The notes below the pieces were generated by a model. It worked only from the letters and a program-made list of their open reading frames with translations. It was not told the origin of the DNA and ran no database searches. DNA of 64,000 nt, taken from positions 192,001 to 256,000 of the forward strand of contig OZ244587.1 of NCBI GenBank assembly GCA_965218095.1, given 5' to 3'. Below are positions 1,404 to 38,964 of the stretch, piece by piece. The position numbers were made by a program, and so were the translations under genes. The stretch's first letter is position 1. Every line of letters starts with the position of its first letter. Source of the DNA: Candidatus Poribacteria bacterium (GTDB taxonomy: Bacteria; Poribacteria; WGA-4E; PCPOR2b).

Positions 1404-2723
1404 TCACCCTGTGTGTGCAATCTGTTCAAACGCTTGACGCATTAACTGCAATCCCGCTTTCGCTTCCGATTCAGCGATTACCAACGGCGGCGAAATCCGC
1501 AATACATTCCCCGCTAAGTACCCCATCAGGTGCAGCCCCTGTCGATAGCACTGGAAAACGCATTCGTTCGCAATTTTGTTCGCCGATTTGCCAGCGTAGC
1601 TATCGACTTCCAGTCCCCATACTAGTCCTTCGCCACGTACATAAGTTGCAAATTCAAAATCATCCGTGAGTCGATAAAGCCCCTCCTCAATCACCTTGCT
1701 GACCTGACGGCAATTCTCGATGATCGGAAATTTCTCAAACGTATCCAGTGCAGCGAGAATGGCGGCACATGCACGCGGGGCACCGCTGTATGAGTCGTGG
1801 GCTTCGCCACAGTCTAGCGAATCGAGGATTTCGGCTCTGCCTACGACCGCTGTCACCGGTTCACCGTTGCCGAGCCCTTTTCCCAACACGACCAGGTCTG
1901 GATGGAGTTCGTAGGTCTGGAAGGCGTACATATTTCCGGTGCGTCCGTTGCAAGATTGGACTTCGTCGAGAATGAAGGTGACGCCGTTTTGATTGCACCA
2001 GTCGTTAAGCTGGCGGAGGTACGATTCCGGTGGGTGGAAAGACCCTTTTGCGCCGAGATACGGCTCGGTGATCAGCATACAGATCTGATTAGGATACTCA
2101 CGCTTCAGGGCATCCAACTCTGCCGCGACTTTCGGCATTAGCACCTCTGGCGACCACGCGGGGTTACTGGTGTGTCGTTTGTCCATAACCATCGGAAACG
2201 AGAGCCACCGCACATTTGGATTCGCGCTTTTCTCGTCCGTGACATCTCCCGCTAGCCCCTCTTGTCCGTGGAAGCCGGGCCGGGTCGCAAGGATAATATG
2301 CTTATCAGGCTGATAGCGTTGCGCCGCCCACATCGCCTTGATGACGCTAGCAGCACCGGAATCTGCCCATAAGACACGCTGCATCTTTTCAATACCCAAA
2401 TTGGCAATGAGCCTCTGGGCGGCCCGTACTTCCAATTCAGTCAGGGCGTTATAGGCAGTTCGTGGGAGATCTTCGATATGGTGTCGGTATTGGTCTTCAA
2501 AGTACGGGTGGTTGTGCCCAAGATTAGCGACCAAAACGCCTGAGGTGAAATCGATGAATCGCCCATCCTCCGAATTCCAAAGATAGACGCCCTGCGCCCA
2601 TCGGATGACCAGTTGTGTTGGGGTGTAAGTTTTATGCCCTTTCGCAATTAGTCTGGCTGCTAACCTTCGGTGATCATCGGATCGGAATTCTTCTTCAAGC
2701 TGGATGGGTGAAGGTATTGTCAT
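1404..2723 (-). CDS. Class III PLP-dependent aminotransferase (GabT/ArgD-like)
   Basis: DFTSGVLVANLGHNHP, FILDEVQS..GRTG, PDLVVLGKGLGNG (PLP lysine), LRISPPL. Confidence 0.9.
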   Translation of the reverse strand: MTIPSPIQLEEEFRSDDHRRLAARLIAKGHKTYTPTQLVIRWAQGVYLWNSEDGRFIDFTSGVLVANLGHNHPYFEDQYRHHIEDLPRTAYNALTELEVRAAQRLIANLGIEKMQRVLWADSGAASVIKAMWAAQRYQPDKHIILATRPGFHGQEGLAGDVTDEKSANPNVRWLSFPMVMDKRHTSNPAWSPEVLMPKVAAELDALKREYPNQICMLITEPYLGAKGSFHPPESYLRQLNDWCNQNGVTFILDEVQSCNGRTGNMYAFQTYELHPDLVVLGKGLGNGEPVTAVVGRAEILDSLDCGEAHDSYSGAPRACAAILAALDTFEKFPIIENCRQVSKVIEEGLYRLTDDFEFATYVRGEGLVWGLEVDSYAGKSANKIANECVFQCYRQGLHLMGYLAGNVLRISPPLVIAESEAKAGLQLMRQAFEQIAHTG

Positions 2724-10720: not shown

Positions 10721-11600
10721 ATGGCAGATAACGTTCTCGCAGTTATCCTCGGTGGTGGGGCCAGCGCACGACTCTTCCCTCTTACCAGAGATTGAGCAAA
10801 ACCAAGCGTGCCAATCGCCGGTAAATTCCGTTTGGTTAATGTCCCAATCAGCAACTGCCTTCATTCAGGCGTAGAACGGATCTATGTCCTCACTCAGTTC
10901 AATTCGGTGTCCTTGAATCGCTACATCGCTCAGGCATACCGCTTCGATTCGTATCGGAGTGGTTTCGTGCAGATTTTAGCCGCCCAGCAAACACTTGATG
11001 GTGGTGATTGGTATCAAGGCACAGCAGATGCCATTCGACGCAACGAATCGTACATCATCAGCCCGACATTTCCGGATGAGCACATTCTGATTCTCGCCGG
11101 TGATCACCTCTACCGCATGGACTATCGAAAGATGCTGGAAGTTCACGTCAACTCGCAGGCGGATATTATGATCTCTGTCATTCCGGTTCACCAAGACGTC
11201 GTGAGTGGGCTTGGGTTTTACAGGTTGATGGGGAGGGACGAATTATCGATTTTGGGCAGGACATCATCCCTAAGAGTATTCACACAAAACGGGTGTTTGC
11301 TTACTTCTTTGATGGTTACTAGGAGGATATTGGGACGATCAAGGCTTTTTACCATGCCAACCTGGGGCTCACCGATCTCTTCCCCAAATTTAACTTCTAT
11401 GATGAACACGCCCCTATCTATACGCGCCGTCACCACCTCCCGAGCACCAAAGTCAACGACAGTCGTATTAGCTCTTCAATCCTCTCGGAAGGCTCGATTA
11501 TTGACGAGTCCGAAATCGACAGATCCATCATCGGCATTCGGAGCATCATCTCCGGTAACTCTCGAATCTACCAGTCGATTCTGATGAGAGTAGACTATTA
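10721..11600 (+). pseudogene. glgC: ADP-glucose pyrophosphorylase, 5' part
   Basis: [68 protein letters not shown]; contains stops, an internal deletion/frameshift and an insertion at 11601. Confidence 0.9.
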
Positions 11601-11606
11601 GAGTTA

Positions 11607-12544
11607 ACCCAAGTTGCGGACTATTCATCGAATATGTGAGTGAACTCAGAGTTGATTGATATTGCTGGCCAGTACAAACAACACCACTTTCAATTCAAAT
11701 CCTTGTGGCGTGACGGCATGGATACAACGCGGGAGCAATCTCTCAATTAAACTCCCACCCGTCTCAACAGACTTACGATAGTAAGTAGCCAGATAGGTCT
11801 CCCATGGCGGATATGCTCGCTTTGAATTCTTCTTGCGTATCGGCTTCAACTCCACTTCGACCGCTGCAACAATATCTTCTATTTCATAGTTATTGTACGC
11901 TTTGTCTCAGTAGACCCGGCTACCCGGTGGCAAGTCGAAGTCAAAACAGTGTAACCCTTCGACGTCGCCGATGCGCGCTGGAGTCACAAAGAATTCAATG
12001 GGCTGTTGGGCAGCGGTAACTAGCAGATGAACCTTCAAGATATCGGCGTTTAGCTGCTTGATAGCCTCGAAATGCCTCATCTGTGTAGATTTTCGACCAA
12101 CGAATGCGAATATTGTCACAGACAACAATTGGCACCGTATCCATCACATAAAGTTTCTGTTGATTGAGTTGCAAAAGCTTTCAGCCAAGATTTTGAACCA
12201 TGTGATGAACATCGGTTTAATTCGGTGAAGTTGTCGATTGAACCGATTCTTTGACAGCATCTTTGGGATATATCGATGAGTCTGGAGAAAGTCACGAACC
12301 GTTTGGAAGTTGGTGCCGAAAAAGAGTGCAGCGACGATGGCGGTGGTCATGCCTTCGGCGTCAGACATCTGAGTTTGTGGATTGGGTTGATGGTCGAATG
12401 CTTCTAAGAGCTTGTCACACAGATAGAAAACGGTTGCCATCTGGATATCCATGGGTTTCTCCTTTGAGGTTATGGTTGAACACCTCAACTTTAACGGAAA
12501 ACCCATGGATTTGCAATAGGTTTAGGTTAGATAGCAACTTAGGT
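11607..12544 (-). mobile_element. IS982-family element, frameshifted transposase
   Basis: Ends ACCCAAGTTGC / GCAACTTAGGT; ORF pieces MSDAEGMTTAIVAALFF, LKVHLLVT, YYRKSVET; near-identical to the copy at 38027-38955. Confidence 0.85.
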
Positions 12545-12568
12545 TATCCATATCATTAAAAAAAACAG

Positions 12569-13888
12569 ATGCCTACAAAATCGAAATCAGGTCAGTGGAA
12601 ACAGTATCGCCCCGCCAAGAAGGTCGGCAAATTATGTTATCACAATTGTACAATGGACTCCGAGTTTCCATTGCGTAATGTTCTAGGCAAATCCACAGAA
12701 CCCAACTATGAAATGGCGACCTACAATTGGTGCGCCTGCTGTAACCAACCAGCCGTTCGCACTGCTGTCCAATGTGGTCTATCACACCTCCTGTTTATTA
12801 CGAAGTATAAGGGCAGGAATGAATGCTACAGGGATCGCTATTTTATCGTCGGCTACTACGAACTGGGGTGGACAGCAGAGATCAACGGGTGCACTGCCAT
12901 TCGAGCGAAAAACCTCTGTTTTGTACCGGTTGAGCACGCCTACGAAATTACAGATGGGCGGTGGCAATGTATCAATCCTCACGGCGAGACGACACGCTTG
13001 ACGAATTTGCGGTGGGCGACGCAACGTATCAGTGAAATCTGCCTCGACAAAATTGTGCAACATCTTGATAAACACAACCGGGTGGCTGATTATCTGTTAG
13101 AGGTTGCCCGACTGAAAGCAAAATACAATCCATTTCAGGATGTTCCCAAAGGGCGCATTTTCATCATAAACGTTGGGGCGAATACCAGCCATCGGCAACA
13201 AAGCCCACTGTTTAATGACAGAACGTTTGAGTTTATACCCATTCCCGGAGGGCACGATGAGGGGTTGACCTACGCCGATCTCCGTCAATTCAACGATCCC
13301 GATATGCCGTTGTTCGATCGATTTGCTGACTCTGCCATCTCACCATCGAAGAAGGTTCACAACGATCCCGAATTTGCCACCTTTACCTACGGCGACAATC
13401 TTCGCAAAAAGGGCGGGTTGCGTCAGTTGCAAGCGGGTGATTTCCTCTTCTTTTTGGCGCGTTTGGTGCCGTATGCGGCGCGGCAATTTGATGAAAAAAA
13501 TGCCAGATTTGCGTTGATCGGCTACCTCGAGATTGAGGAGCGTTTCGATAACCCCGATGATCTAATGTTCACTAGTCCGGCGCTCAATAAGAATGCACAC
13601 GTCATGCGATGGGTGAACAACCCGGCAAGCTTTACCAACTATGCCGTTTTCAAAGGGTCGATCAACTCCCGACGCTTCCACACCGCTGTACCTTTTGACC
13701 GCAAATTTGTCGAACATATCCCTATCCTAAAAAAGAATCGAACAGCTTGGAAGTGGGGGAAACAGACTGACCTCGGCGTTATCGGCTCAAATACTAGAGC
13801 AGTACGCATGCACATCGATCCGAAAAAAGATAAAAAACGTGCGAAACGATTTTGGAAACGTATTTGGAAATTGCAAAGTTGGTCTTGA
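12569..13888 (+). CDS. Two-domain protein: Cys-rich N-terminal domain plus C-terminal Nmad3-like (nucleotide-modification-associated) domain
   Basis: C-domain IINVGANT...SPLFNDRTFEFIPIP...TYADL...VHNDPEF..FTYGD...LQAGDFLFF...LIGY; N-domain EPNYEMATYNWCACC...LLFIT...YFIVGYY. Family call is from recall only. Confidence 0.55.
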   Translation: MPTKSKSGQWKQYRPAKKVGKLCYHNCTMDSEFPLRNVLGKSTEPNYEMATYNWCACCNQPAVRTAVQCGLSHLLFITKYKGRNECYRDRYFIVGYYELGWTAEINGCTAIRAKNLCFVPVEHAYEITDGRWQCINPHGETTRLTNLRWATQRISEICLDKIVQHLDKHNRVADYLLEVARLKAKYNPFQDVPKGRIFIINVGANTSHRQQSPLFNDRTFEFIPIPGGHDEGLTYADLRQFNDPDMPLFDRFADSAISPSKKVHNDPEFATFTYGDNLRKKGGLRQLQAGDFLFFLARLVPYAARQFDEKNARFALIGYLEIEERFDNPDDLMFTSPALNKNAHVMRWVNNPASFTNYAVFKGSINSRRFHTAVPFDRKFVEHIPILKKNRTAWKWGKQTDLGVIGSNTRAVRMHIDPKKDKKRAKRFWKRIWKLQSWS

Positions 13889-14042
13889 CGTAAGTCATCC
13901 TGAATTTTTTTTCAATCCCAGTGCCTCTGCGAATCTCCTAAGCTTTGGAAATGAGGAATGGAATGTAAAACGTAGTTACTTGAGGATAACCATTTTTCGC
14001 AACGACGAAACACCGTCCCCATGTAGCTGGTAGAAATAGATA

Positions 14043-14194
14043 ACCCGAGTTGCCACCTTGATAAGAAAAGGGGCAGAAACCGAGTTTTTTACGATGAATC
14101 AATACGAGTTGTGCGAAAACGGGCCCAATTTGCTCAGCATGTGGGAAACGGCCGCCAAAAACTCGGTTTCTCTGGAATAGGTCGCAACTTGGGT
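14043..14194. mobile_element. IS982-type MITE (152 bp)
   Basis: Ends ACCCGAGTTGCCACCT / AGGTCGCAACTTGGGT match the IS982 TIRs; internal IR AGAAACCGAGTTTT / AAAACTCGGTTTCT. Confidence 0.75.
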
Positions 14195-14196
14195 TA

Positions 14197-14292
14197 GAGT
14201 TAATTGGAAATAAGCCGATTCTACAATATGTTGGGTAATAAACGACAATTTACTGCTAAATATTGTGGCTTGTCGTTATTTCCAAATATGTC
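14197..14292. mobile_element. Older ~96-bp MITE inserted in glgC
   Basis: Imperfect IR GAGTTAATTGGAAATAA / TTATTTCCAAATATGTC; TATTA duplicated at 11596-11600 and 14293-14297. Confidence 0.6.
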
Positions 14293-14532
14293 TATTATGA
14301 AACAGAGAAACAGAAGAGGCAGAATCAGGAAAATGGCATTCTAGCTGTTGGCGTTGGAAGAAACTACCTGATTCAAGGTGCCATTGTTGACAAAAACGCC
14401 AGAATTGGAGAAAACTCAACGATTGCCAACACCGAGAATAAGGAACACTTTGACGGTGATAATTACTATATTCACGACGGTATTGTGATTATCCTTGACG
14501 ATGCGGTGATCATGCCAGGAACGGTAATCTGA
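14293..14532 (+). pseudogene. glgC: glgC 3' part (beta-helix C-terminus)
   Basis: YYETE...GVGRNYLIQGAIVDKNARIG...YYIHDGIVII...IMPGTVI; joins LMRVDY at 11581-11598. Confidence 0.9.
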
Positions 14533-14748: not shown

Positions 14749-16101
14749 TTATTTCTTCATTGACCCGTTTACCAATTCCCGAATCGCCTCCTTGACCGCT
14801 TCCTCAACTGCTGGCGCAAATGGGGCGCTCTGTCGCCATCGCTTGTAGGCGTTCGGCTCGTAGCCGCCCTCGGAGAGGGCTCGGGCAGTTGGCACATAAG
14901 TTTGACAGCCCTGCGTGTAGCCGAGCGTGAACGTCCGCTTTCCCCTCAACAATTCCCGTGCATACAATCCGTATTCTAGGAAAAACTCACCCGAAAACGC
15001 CATCCAGTGAACATCACCAATGTCCCACCGCGAGAAGGTGTAGTCCACCGTTGTTGGCGCGCGATTCTCCGCTAGTTCAAGCCGAACCTGCTACACCCAT
15101 TGTCGCATCGCAAGTTGGTAACCGGTATTCCACGATGAACCTCTCGCCTTTTCTGCTTCGCTCGCCTGTGCGGATCTGACCGCCTGGGCAACGACCTCAT
15201 CGAGCTCGCAACGCAATGGGGGATCGGTGAGCGGTAGCGCTCGCCGGATGCGCCAAGTACGAATGGAGTTCGGAGGAACTGGTTCACGAACCTTTAAGGC
15301 TTCATCTACGGCATCGGCAAGCTCACTCCCACAACGCATCGCATCGCTTGATGTCCCTCCCCGGAATCTGCCATTTTCATCTACGAGATTTGGACGTACA
15401 TTTCCGAATATACCCGGTAGGTAAAGCGCAACGACTTCACGATGCCGGGCTTCCAACGCCAACTGAGCTTGACCCGGATAATCCCCCGAGACTTTCGGCC
15501 CGAGTAGAATCGTTGGGTGACAACAGTAGCTGAAAAATACCCCAGCCAGCGATCCATCTTCTCGATGACATGCAAGGATGGGCACGCTTTTATCGACCAC
15601 TCCATCGGGGTTTGGCTGCATGATGCATGTTCCCGCCGCGGTAATCCGCCGTCGATTCACATTAAAATCACAAATCGACTTCCCAAACGAGAGTGTGACA
15701 GGCTCCATGCAGAATAGCAAATCTTTTGCCAATTGGGTCACATGATCACGTACGCCGTCAAAATAAGGGCTAAAGCCACCGCGGAGGTCAATAGGACACA
15801 AGATCGGCGCCGAGTGGCTGTGGCTGCTGGTTATCAGGATACGATCGGACGGAATGCTTGTTGTGTCAGTGATTGCGTTCTCAAGCTCCGCAATTTCAGC
15901 GACGCCCAGTCCCAGCGTGTCGGTGGCGAGGACGAGTACGGGGAGCCCGGCAGCTTGGATCACCGCGATACGCGCATAGATGTCGTCCAAAACGCCTGTC
16001 GGTATGCCAAAGAAGAAATCTGGATAAACGTCATTGATTGGCGGCGTTATTGAAACCTTCCCAAAAGCAGCCCCGATTTTATCGGGATGTTCCACTTTCA
16101 T
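14749..16101 (-). pseudogene. Neutral/alkaline ceramidase-like hydrolase with an in-frame TAG
   Basis: ITSSHSHSAP, NVNRR, YCCHPT, SGDYPG, then after the stop at 15091-93 GEFFLEYG...GYTQG..YVPT...EGGYE in the same frame. Confidence 0.75.
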
Positions 16102-16291
16102 CTGACCTCCCATCGTTTTTGGATTCTATTTGTTCTTGCGAAGATTTATCGATTCAGTTGCGTATGCACGCGAATTTTACGATGTGTGAATTGTCAAAAT
16201 TCCCTGTCAGTTTATCAAAAACTGTTTCTGAGATCAACGCAAAACTTACTCTCGAAACCTGATTAGATCGCCACTTCCATGAAGACTATAA

Positions 16292-17542
16292 TGGATCCCG
16301 AAATCTGTACCACCAATTAAGTCAGAAATTCGTCGAATGAATACTCATTCAAAATGGAGGGTCCAATATGTCTACGAAAAGAATTCGGCACACCGCCAAG
16401 TTCAAGTTTACTATTGCTATTGAGGCGATAAGGGCAGACAAAAGTATCAATCAACTGGCAAGTGAACACCAACTGCACCCCAGCCAAATCAGTCAGTGGA
16501 AAAAACAACTCCTTGACCAAGGGAGCCAAATTTTATCTAACATCGCTGCCAAACATCAACTCAAGCAGCACCAAAGGGAGTCAGACCTATATGAACAAAT
16601 CGGTCGGCTGAATATGGAACTCGACTGGTTGAAAAAAAAGCGACCCCATCGAGTTGAACAAAAACGCGCATGGATTGAAGCGAACCATCCTAAGCTGAGT
16701 ATTCGTCGCCAGTGTGAGTTGCTTGGTTTTTCCCGCTCAACGCTCTACTACCAACCCGCACAAGAATCGGAGGAAAATCTCAGGTTGATGTAGCTGATTG
16801 ATGAGCAGTATATGAAGACACCCTTTTACGGTAGCCGCCGAATGACCCAATATCTCAAACGCCTTGGCATAGATGTCAATCGCAAGCAGGTTCAGCGACT
16901 GATGAAGATACTGGGCATAGAAGCGATTTATCCCAAACTCAAGTCCTCAGCCATCAACAGCAAGCATCGGATTTACCCATACCTGTTGCGTGATTATGTG
17001 GTTGAAACTCCCAATGAGGTCTGGTTAGCAGACATCACATATCTACCGATGAATAAAGGGTTTATGTATCTGGTTGCGATACTCGACTGGTATAGTCGTT
17101 ACGTCATTACTTGGGAGCTATCCAATCGTCTAGAAGGTCAGTTCTGCCTCGACGCCTTGCATCGCGTATTAGCTTGGGCAACCCCTACCATCTTCAATAC
17201 CGACCAAGGCGTCCAGTTTACCGCCAATGCTTTCACCAATACTATTGAAACTGCTGGTATTGCTATGAGTATGGATGGCGTGGGTCGAGCCATTGACAAC
17301 ATTTACATCGAGCGGTTTTCGTGCTCCGTCAAGTACGAAGATGTTTACCAGAAACTCTACCAGACGGGACAAGCCCTTTTTGATGGATTAGCTAACTATA
17401 TCCGTTTCTATAATGAGCAACGACCGCACCAGAGTCTTGATTATGCAACGCCGGCTGAGGTGTATCTCGGCTAAAACAGCGTCGGTATATCTCAAACATC
17501 TTACTTATTTTTCCATTACTTTGGCCTTGAGCATGGGGTCCA
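16292..17542 (+). mobile_element. IS3-family element; transposase has a premature stop
   Basis: TG...CA ends (TGGATCCC / GGGGTCCA); orfA HTH with an A8G slippery site; orfB rve core WLADITY, FNTDQGVQF, DNIYIER, RPHQSLDY; TAG at 16791-93. Confidence 0.9.
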
Positions 17543-38026: not shown

Positions 38027-38955
38027 ACCCAAGTTGCTACCTATTGCAAATCCATGGGTTTTCCGTTAAAGTTGAGGTGTTCAACCATAACCTCAATAAC
38101 CTCAAAGGAGAAACCCATGGACATCCAAATTGTAACCGTTTTCTATCTGTGTGACAAGCTCTTAGAAGCATTCAACCCAAAACTCAATCCACAAACTCAG
38201 ATGTCTGACGCCGAAGTTATGACCACCGCTGTCGTTGCTGCTCTCTTTTTCGATGCCAACTTCCAAACGGCTCGCGATTTTCTTCAAACTCATGGCTATA
38301 TACCAAATATGCTCTCAAAGAGTCGATTCAATCGACAACTTCATCGAATGAAACCGATGTTCATTACACTGTTCAAAATCTTGGCACAAAGCTTTGTGCA
38401 ACTCAATCAACAGAAGTTGTATGCGCTGGATACTGTGACAATATTCGCATTCATCGGTCAAAAACCCACACAGATGAGGCATTTCGAGGCTATCAAGCGT
38501 CCAAACATCGGTATTTCTACGGCTTGAAGGTTCATCTGCTGGTGACCGCCGCCCAACACCCCGTTGAATTTTTTGTGACCCCAGCGAGCACAGGAGACGT
38601 CGAAGGCTTACAGTGGTTTGACTTCGACTTGCCACCGGGCAGCCGGGTCTACGGCGACAAAGCGTACAATAACTATGAGATAGAAGATATTGTTGCAGCA
38701 GTTGAAGTGGAATTGAAGCCAATACGCAAGAAGCATTCAAAACGAGCATATCCGCCATGGGAGACCTATTTGGCTAATTACTATCGTAAGTCTGTTGAGA
38801 CGGCTGGAAGTTTGATTGAGAGACTGCTTCCGCGTTGTATCCATGCGGTGACGCGACAGGGATTTGAATTGAAAGTGGTCTTGTTTGTACTGGCTAGTAG
38901 TATCAATCAGCTCTGAGTTCACTCACATATTCGATGAATAGGTGGCAACTTGAGT
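38027..38955 (+). mobile_element. IS982-family element, frameshifted transposase
   Basis: ACCCAAGTTGCTACCT / AGGTGGCAACTTGAGT ends; 7-bp TSD TATAATA (38020-26 and 38956-62); YGDKAY, YYRKSVET. Confidence 0.9.
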
Positions 38956-38964
38956 TATAATAAC

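Follow-up and report, generated by a model that had tools for sequence, protein, structure and literature searches.

Nmad3 (PF18754) is a Pfam family for which, to our knowledge, neither a fold nor a function has been described. Modified bases are read by PUA-like β-barrels, among them those of EVE (PH1033, THYN1), ASCH (TRIP4, ZmASCH), YTH (YTHDF1–3, Mmi1) and archaeal McrB N-domain proteins. Here we analyse an intact gene of 439 codons that joins a divergent Nmad3 domain to a second, apparently homologous domain, both predicted to adopt a barrel of this class. The gene lies at 12569–13888 in a 64,000-nucleotide (nt) stretch of DNA (the window; positions 192,001–256,000 of contig OZ244587.1, assembly GCA_965218095.1) from a Candidatus Poribacteria bacterium, between mobile elements that interrupt a dead glgC gene. 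That it is the fused version of a conserved two-gene module is well supported. Unfused relatives directly follow two genes of queuosine-tRNA synthesis, and we tentatively read the module as a binder of a queuosine-family modified base. The open reading frame (ORF) and its two halves are:

12569–13888, plus strand: intact fusion ORF, N-domain plus Nmad3 C-domain; 439 amino acids (aa), ATG start, uninterrupted
12569–13141, plus strand: N-domain, residues 1–191; family without a Pfam model, apparent distant homolog of the Nmad3 core (profile match to the C-domain, 87.7%)
13142–13885, plus strand: C-domain, residues 192–439; divergent Nmad3 with a predicted PUA-like barrel fold (PF18754, E = 5e-21)

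The C-half matched the Pfam Nmad3 model at 75.9 bits (gathering cut-off 27; residues 196–347), and a six-frame search of the genome with this model gave the same result. The match is partial rather than full-length: it covers positions 1–164 of the 247 in the model, as against positions 1–247 (E = 1e-65 to 1e-84) for the canonical Nmad3 proteins of Poribacteria. The remainder of the C-half beyond the match is still conserved with solo relatives, that is, proteins carrying just one of the two domains. Motifs of the N-V-G-A-N, H-x-D-P-E-F and G-D-x-L-F-F-L-A-R-L types are also shared with solo Nmad3 proteins. Judged by its sequence, the C-half is a member of a divergent Nmad3 subfamily, to which the 439-aa protein adds a homologous N-domain lacking a Pfam model.

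The N-half matched none of the models in Pfam, NCBIfam and PADLOC. Its similarity to the C-half was marginal by BLASTP (E = 0.047) and reached 71% probability in a profile–profile comparison (E = 3.7e-5, 50 columns). Independently built alignments of solo-N and solo-C proteins matched at 87.7% (E = 3.4e-6, 72 columns), and this match pairs exactly the motifs that an earlier note, made from the sequence alone, had given for the two halves. The tandem of related domains proposed in that note is thereby borne out: by profile comparison the N-half is a distant homolog of the C-half, with a likeness beyond chance. The note's description of the protein as "double Nmad-like" holds for the C-half, which is Nmad3, and not for the N-half, which lacks any library match. 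Its suggestion of an Nmad2 domain found no support, as the N-half did not match PF18753 at E up to 0.1 and the N-domain profile did not align to the Nmad2 part (residues 260–431) of P0186, an Nmad3–Nmad2 fusion protein of 435 aa. The profile aligned weakly to the Nmad3 part of P0186. Such fusions resemble the present protein in length and in joining Nmad3 to a second domain; P0186, however, carries Nmad3 first with Nmad2 as the partner, whereas here Nmad3 comes last and the partner is not Nmad2. In the family alignment, the invariant polar residues are H264, D266, E268, D276, D291, N342 and H344 in the C-half and E44, N46 and E48 in the N-half.

AlphaFold2 modelled the whole chain from a 106-row alignment with a predicted local distance difference test score (pLDDT) of 95.2 and a predicted template modelling score (pTM) of 0.93; the C-domain alone gave a pLDDT of 92.6. 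Given the whole-chain values, the two domains would form one fixed globule. Foldseek searches of the PDB with the whole-chain and C-domain models returned lists that were almost wholly PUA-like, with target-normalised template modelling (TM) scores of 0.35–0.56. The whole model matched YTH domains and the YTH-like N-domain of Thermococcus gammatolerans McrB (E = 8e-3 to 0.2). The C-domain matched McrB N-domains at the top (best E = 3e-3, probability 0.91), and its other matches were ASCH proteins (TRIP4, ZmASCH), EVE proteins (PH1033 with a TM-score of 0.51–0.56, and THYN1), MJECL36 and the ATP-sulfurylase N-domain. Because these fold matches are uniform, we provisionally place both halves in the PUA-like class of modified-base binders. 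The matches to YTHDF weakened once the N-domain was removed (E from ~0.03 to 0.6), which suggests that the N-domain is the more YTH-like of the two predicted barrels. A PUA/EVE/YTH-like fold thus emerged from the predicted models; the earlier note had proposed a structural check for PUA/SRA/EVE-like folds. Together with the module architecture, this predicted fold class is well supported, with matches that are individually weak and none at E ≤ 1e-3. A sequence-profile search of the PDB gave nothing at E up to 10, so that no solved structure was found among the sequence relatives, and a fold search of BFVD yielded no significant match (best E = 0.07). For the N-domain, the ESM Atlas returned unnamed clusters only, and a T4 Gp59-like cluster at 0.93 was treated as chance. 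The protein resembles the PUA-like readers in its predicted barrel fold, and differs from them in lacking sequence-level membership and any fused nuclease or GTPase, and in having two diverged barrels per chain or per gene pair.

A single-protein search of genome contigs returned nothing; an alignment-based search then gave relatives. In a word-indexed search there were 269, and 71 of the 120 listed span at least 95% of the query; a representative library held 473 at E up to 1e-3. Stand-alone Nmad3 proteins of ~250 aa are many, and the N-domain also occurs as stand-alone proteins of ~183–230 aa. Among 80 metagenome loci retrieved with an alignment of solo N-domains, 6 contained the fused N+C form and 16 contained separate, adjacent N and C genes. 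The adjacent pairs comprised four C-then-N tandems with a 4-nt overlap, 11 convergent pairs and one N-then-C pair. The occurrence of a fused form alongside three independent adjacent arrangements suggests that the N- and C-domains act as one unit. Genomes carrying a solo domain gave no match to the other one, as none of 5 Fibrobacterota genomes that carry a solo N-domain had an Nmad3 match and none of 5 Dehalococcoidia genomes that carry a solo Nmad3 had an N-domain match, the completeness of these genomes being unknown.

On three metagenome contigs (loci L119, L120 and L122), overlapping DHOD-like and PyrK-like Fe-S/NAD genes are followed by the C-then-N tandem, and 3' of the tandem stand genes of 287 and 203 aa, neither with a Pfam match, and then an ABC exporter. 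The tandem may here be part of a larger operon.

The final two steps of queuosine-tRNA synthesis are catalysed by QueA and QueG. In 16 of 25 solo-Nmad3 loci, from Dehalococcoidia/Chloroflexota, QueG lies within ~80 nt of the Nmad3 gene, which follows it. The identity of QueG was confirmed by Fer4_16, QueG_DUF1730 and HEAT domains in both of the two representatives tested. Seven of the 12 same-strand pairs measured show a 4-nt overlap or a gap of 1–5 nt, and the Nmad3 orthologs of these pairs are 49–82% identical. In Dehalococcoidia the pair adjoins genes for HisRS, RF1 and PrmC. Similarly, the solo N-domain gene comes immediately after QueA in 20 of 38 genome loci, which are mostly from Fibrobacterota, and in 10 of the 80 metagenome loci; FolE neighbours the solo N-domain in two further loci. 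Conserved adjacency to queuosine genes was therefore found for the relatives with QueG, QueA and FolE, and since QueA and QueG are consecutive, the two homologous domains are each linked to one of two successive steps, in lineages distant from each other. The connection of homologs to modification loci that the earlier note had wished to see examined is thus present in the unfused relatives, which neighbour QueG, QueA, FolE and genes of nucleotide metabolism. A complex prediction for one QueG–Nmad3 pair (locus L055, with alignments) gave a score of 0.00 (mark 0.32), with controls unfolded, and was counted neither way. QueG and MetH are both B12 enzymes, and cobalamin was considered as a shared link; it was rejected, since MetH occurs in just 7 of 38 loci and QueA is not B12-dependent.

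A further, large group of solo N-domain loci comes from gut and rumen metagenome-assembled genomes (subsets of L083–L100 and L145–L191). An Asp/Glu-racemase-like gene stands directly upstream of the N-domain there, and further upstream are a UvrD-helicase/acyltransferase fusion and an LPG-synthase-like membrane protein. Bins assigned to very different taxa contain almost the same arrangement, which suggests mis-binning or a mobile element.

Our tentative reading, which falls a little short of probable, is that the protein is a PUA-like module of two barrels and binds a modified base of the queuosine family, this copy of it being transposon cargo. Each half would be a PUA-like β-barrel of the Nmad3 superfamily, and the barrels would pack as one globule, a pseudo-heterodimer. 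As in EVE, YTH, ASCH and McrB N-domain proteins, a modified base would be held in a pocket, here lined by invariant acidic, His, Arg and aromatic residues (H-x-D-P-E-F and W-x-W in the C-half, E-P-N-Y-E in the N-half). The ligand would be a 7-deazaguanine base, namely epoxyqueuosine or queuosine at tRNA position 34, or the free nucleoside; a queuosine-family ligand is judged likeliest because the unfused relatives directly follow QueG and QueA. The module would act as a reader, a helper or possibly a hydrolase that assists or follows the QueA and QueG steps, rather than as a phage-defence sensor. The gene in the window is a passenger between a decayed element resembling the insertion sequence (IS) IS982 and a miniature inverted-repeat transposable element (MITE) with the same ends, and the composite unit would have inserted into a glgC that was already dead and rich in mobile elements. 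Within this scheme we infer pocket binding, the queuosine-type ligand and the choice between reader and enzyme. The available portion of an EVE/PUA review offers a precedent in stand-alone EVE proteins encoded in operons with tRNA-modification enzymes, and contains no mention of queuosine or Nmad (PMC7641849).

The ORF starts at the same ATG as its closest homolog, and is present in one copy in the 6.35-Mb, one-contig host genome, as found by DNA search and with profiles of either domain. It retains all 58 of the columns that are invariant in a 32-sequence family alignment. Ratios of non-synonymous to synonymous substitution rates (dN/dS) against five relatives were 0.16–0.31, all well below 1 and lower for the C-domain, with the highest value, 0.31, against the closest copy. 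We take the gene as functional because of these ratios and the retention of all invariant positions, and the sequence comparisons support an intact gene under purifying selection. As the earlier note had observed, the ORF is uninterrupted amid decay, with the glgC pseudogene and transposase fragments around it. The other 439-aa ORF of the window (1404–2723) bears no relation to it. In one study, four sponge metatranscriptome runs yielded contigs that are 99–100% identical to parts of the ORF; uncovered stretches carry no meaning in such contigs. Because the decayed IS and glgC are equally covered, ORF-specific transcription is neither established nor excluded. Promoter and terminator sites were no more numerous in a scan than in shuffled sequence.

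The mobile unit and the gene that it interrupts comprise the following features, listed from left to right:

10721–11598, plus strand: glgC pseudogene, 5' part; residues 1–165 and 234–351 by tblastn with an intact relative; NTP_transferase domain
11601–11604, no strand: target-site duplication GAGT, left copy (right copy at 14197–14200)
11605–12546, minus strand: decayed IS982-like element with both terminal inverted repeats; weak IS982 transposase match, 120-aa fragment
14041–14196, no strand: MITE of 156 bp with IS982-type inverted repeats at both ends; repeat I2; partial genome copies
14197–14292, no strand: remainder of a small palindromic MITE-like element, including the right GAGT; repeat I1; identical genome copy of 14198–14262
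14293–14532, plus strand: glgC pseudogene, 3' part, resuming at residue 351; LbH_GLGC domain

The glgC gene (ADP-glucose pyrophosphorylase) contains two in-frame stops, has lost 68 residues (166–233) and is cleanly split at residue 351 by a 2.7-kb nested mobile-element insertion between 11598 and 14293. The inserted unit consists of the IS982-like element, 22 bp, the ORF, 152 bp and the MITE. The left end of the IS and the right end of the MITE form inverted repeat I2 (22 nt, 91% complementary), and the interior of the MITE is not homologous to the IS982-like element. GAGT flanks the unit as a whole, whereas the flanks of the IS alone or of the MITE alone do not match; other copies of the IS show AT-rich duplications of 3–5 bp. 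Both cognate outer repeats and a target-site duplication are thus present, and because the outer repeats pair and GAGT flanks only the whole unit, the IS, ORF and MITE would have moved as one. These sequence features support a single transposition, although a 4-bp match, with a chance expectation of roughly 1%, is modest evidence. The view of the ORF as transposon cargo, put forward in the earlier note, agrees with the inverted repeats, the GAGT duplication and the clean split of glgC.

The unit was inserted within the palindromic MITE-like element, which spans 11599–11604 and 14197–14292 and contains inverted repeat I1 (14195–14229 / 14260–14294, 35-nt arms, 71% complementary); its segment 14198–14262 has a 100% identical copy at 2171215–2171279 of the host genome (G000). 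The transposase of the IS982-like element survives only as fragments, of which a 120-aa piece is the longest (22.8 bits; cut-off 130), and no working transposase was found. The host genome holds 31 other near-full-length copies of the element at 77–86% identity, and the IS–ORF–MITE unit itself is single-copy. In its outer repeats, 4-bp duplication and cargo in between, the unit resembles passenger genes mobilised between an IS and a cognate MITE; it differs in its decayed transposase, in being present just once in the genome and in having flanks that the gene's relatives do not share. A second decayed IS982-like copy, 86% identical, lies in the window at ~38039–38957 (G000:230039–230957). Partial copies of the MITE are present at many other genome sites, and its summed metatranscriptome contig depth is far above that of its surroundings. 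The N-terminal part of glgC was matched in just 6 of 13 related genomes searched, the host included.

Nmad3 was matched in 35 of 176 genomes of the phylum. The fused type, called by a match to Nmad3 model positions ~1–165 and an open frame of at least 442 aa, was found in about 9 of these 176 genomes as 11 copies and one broken copy. In a tree, all 11 Poribacteria copies form one clade (99/100 support) with the Chloroflexota copies outside. Between the ORF and its closest copy, dS is 0.32; for the same pair of genomes, two housekeeping genes from the window used as controls, with orthology assigned by best hit, gave 1.59 (MoxR) and 3.04 (HpcH aldolase), with dN similar. From this difference in dS, the gene moved within Poribacteria long after the two genomes split, and, as far as sequence divergence tells, it reached the host lineage by recent transfer within the phylum. 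Nucleotide homology to relatives stops 24–62 bp from the ORF, so the flanks do not travel with the gene. The flanking genes of the closest homolog map dispersed in the host genome, and no empty site could be defined. Canonical full-model Nmad3 (~280–330 aa), which the host lacks, was matched in 23 of the 28 genomes in the host's own family and in 10 of 11 in a sister family. It is syntenic within genera and stands among ordinary metabolic genes; its carriers include genomes G013, G043, G050, G060, G061 and G067 (loci L192–L203).

No conserved neighbours were found at 16 clustered full-length loci, except for the flanks common to two syntenic sister genomes. With one of these sister loci (L036) left out, the remaining 15 loci provided 81 flanking proteins, among which no Pfam family occurred more than twice and one was a DDE transposase.

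Several observations weigh against a queuosine-binding module. The Foldseek searches of the PDB with the whole and C-domain models fell short of E ≤ 1e-3, and the protein is matched by none of the Pfam models for PUA, EVE, YTH and ASCH. Queuosine genes are absent from the 81 neighbours of the 15 full-length loci, and the host encodes its QueA, QueG and Tgt megabases away from the ORF. The queuosine link comes from Dehalococcoidia and Fibrobacterota, and in either lineage it may go back to a single old arrangement. Unfused relatives also have other partners: an Asp/Glu-racemase-like gene upstream of the solo N-domain in 9 of 38 genome loci and 23 of 80 metagenome loci, DHOD-like and PyrK-like genes plus an ABC transporter with some N/C pairs, a PyrF–PRTase fusion following a solo N-domain, and an epimerase in 4 of 33 neighbours. 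In RNA libraries, contig depth on the ORF is low and equal to that on the adjacent decayed IS and glgC remnant. Additionally, the ORF has a dN/dS of 0.31, about six times the ratio for the two housekeeping controls, and in a patchy, mobile, recently transferred gene such a value would fit an accessory or conflict gene better than a tRNA-modification helper.

Some of these contexts speak for a salvage or house-cleaning enzyme, a module that binds and processes a free modified nucleoside or nucleotide, for example from tRNA turnover, through its invariant His, Asp and Glu residues. We regard this as unlikely, while giving it more weight than the alternatives discussed below. Small ASCH-fold amidohydrolases act on modified cytidines, and ASCH enzymes are among the fold matches of the C-domain. 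The invariant residues H264, D266, E268, D276, D291, N342, H344, E44, N46 and E48 could serve such chemistry, yet the sequence showed no recognisable catalytic motif of any known hydrolase family. The DHOD-like/PyrK-like genes with the ABC transporter, the PyrF–PRTase fusion, FolE and an IMPDH/GMP-reductase-like gene found in 11 of the 25 solo-Nmad3 loci would fit a salvage role. However, these genes of nucleotide metabolism were seen at few loci (3 and 2, possibly from the same organisms), and the substrates of QueG and QueA are tRNA-bound bases rather than free nucleosides.

The earlier note had favoured a defence role with phage DNA as the target. In this account, the protein would be a stand-alone defence or anti-modification protein that senses modified phage DNA, conceivably DNA with 7-deazaguanine, alone or with an unlinked effector. 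Among its fold matches, the best are indeed N-domains of McrB, which sense modified DNA. The gene itself is mobile and patchily distributed, has several copies in some genomes and was recently transferred, and its dN/dS exceeds that of the housekeeping controls. An unspecified NMAD domain is also named among predicted, unvalidated defence domains in the DefensePredictor paper (PMC13092281), which we counted on this side. Nevertheless, PADLOC matched no family to the 439-aa protein at E up to 1, and gave single-member matches only among the 81 neighbours (without a measured background rate), where no Pfam family recurs more than twice. No nuclease, NTPase or other effector domain is present in the 71 near-full-length relatives among the 120 listed. 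Scans of IMG/VR with the family alignment and with P0186 produced pattern matches and no confirmed relative, and BFVD gave no significant match. The solo forms, moreover, occur in housekeeping translation and queuosine contexts. With neither PADLOC matches, recurrent neighbours nor viral relatives, the defence role proposed in the note finds no backing, and we consider it improbable.

More doubtful still is a dedicated 7-deazaguanine recogniser with a divided role, in which the housekeeping solo or paired form would read or process epoxyqueuosine or queuosine in tRNA, and the mobile fused form among sponge symbionts would sense or remove 7-deazaguanine from phage DNA or scavenge queuine. If true, this would be a new class of reader or enzyme for that base. 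Finally, a hitch-hiker without a current role, intact merely through recent arrival with the IS–MITE unit and due to decay, would accord with the decay of all surroundings, with a host that lacks the canonical Nmad3 of 23 of 28 genomes in its family, with metatranscriptome contigs that do not demonstrate ORF-specific expression and with a dN/dS that is highest (0.31) against the closest copy, but is very unlikely in view of a 439-codon open frame with all 58 family-invariant residues and dN/dS well below 1 in all pairs, and in any case concerns this copy alone and leaves the role of the family unexplained.

Besides one canonical Tgt, the host genome encodes four divergent TGT-family (PF01702) paralogs at 52–62 bits in frames of 348–646 aa (G000:1273509–1274360, 3554616–3555377, 288453–289298 and 678095–678865). 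Several base-exchange enzymes in one genome are unusual, and could bear a relation to 7-deazaguanine chemistry. Downstream of the unit, the window contains an apparently whole IS3-type element, with OrfA (HTH_Tnp_1) at 16368–16793 and OrfB (rve integrase core) at 16812–17474. At 14749–16113 on the minus strand there are consecutive ORFs of 340 and 99 aa, the larger with a faint ceramidase-like match (E = 0.08); they may be a split gene.

Returning to the two-barrel module and its proposed queuosine-family ligand, our literature searches brought up no paper that ties Nmad3 or a PUA-like domain to queuosine and no dedicated PUA-like reader of 7-deazaguanine bases (the Pfam source publication and its supplements were not covered). 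What is new relative to the PUA-like readers is an effector-less, paired-barrel and partly mobile module. The analysis gives a predicted fold class, that of the PUA-like modified-base readers, to Nmad3 and to an N-domain family lacking any model, and it suggests that two diverged barrels work together as the functional unit, in one chain or as the products of separate genes. There is also evidence that one branch of the family moves horizontally between sponge symbionts. Should the proposed ligand be wrong, the family would still stand out as an unusual PUA-like module with two barrels and no effector. In queuosine biology, salvage, turnover and the readers of the modification are still under question, and the repeated coupling of this family to the last two enzymes of queuosine-tRNA synthesis offers a testable ligand hypothesis.

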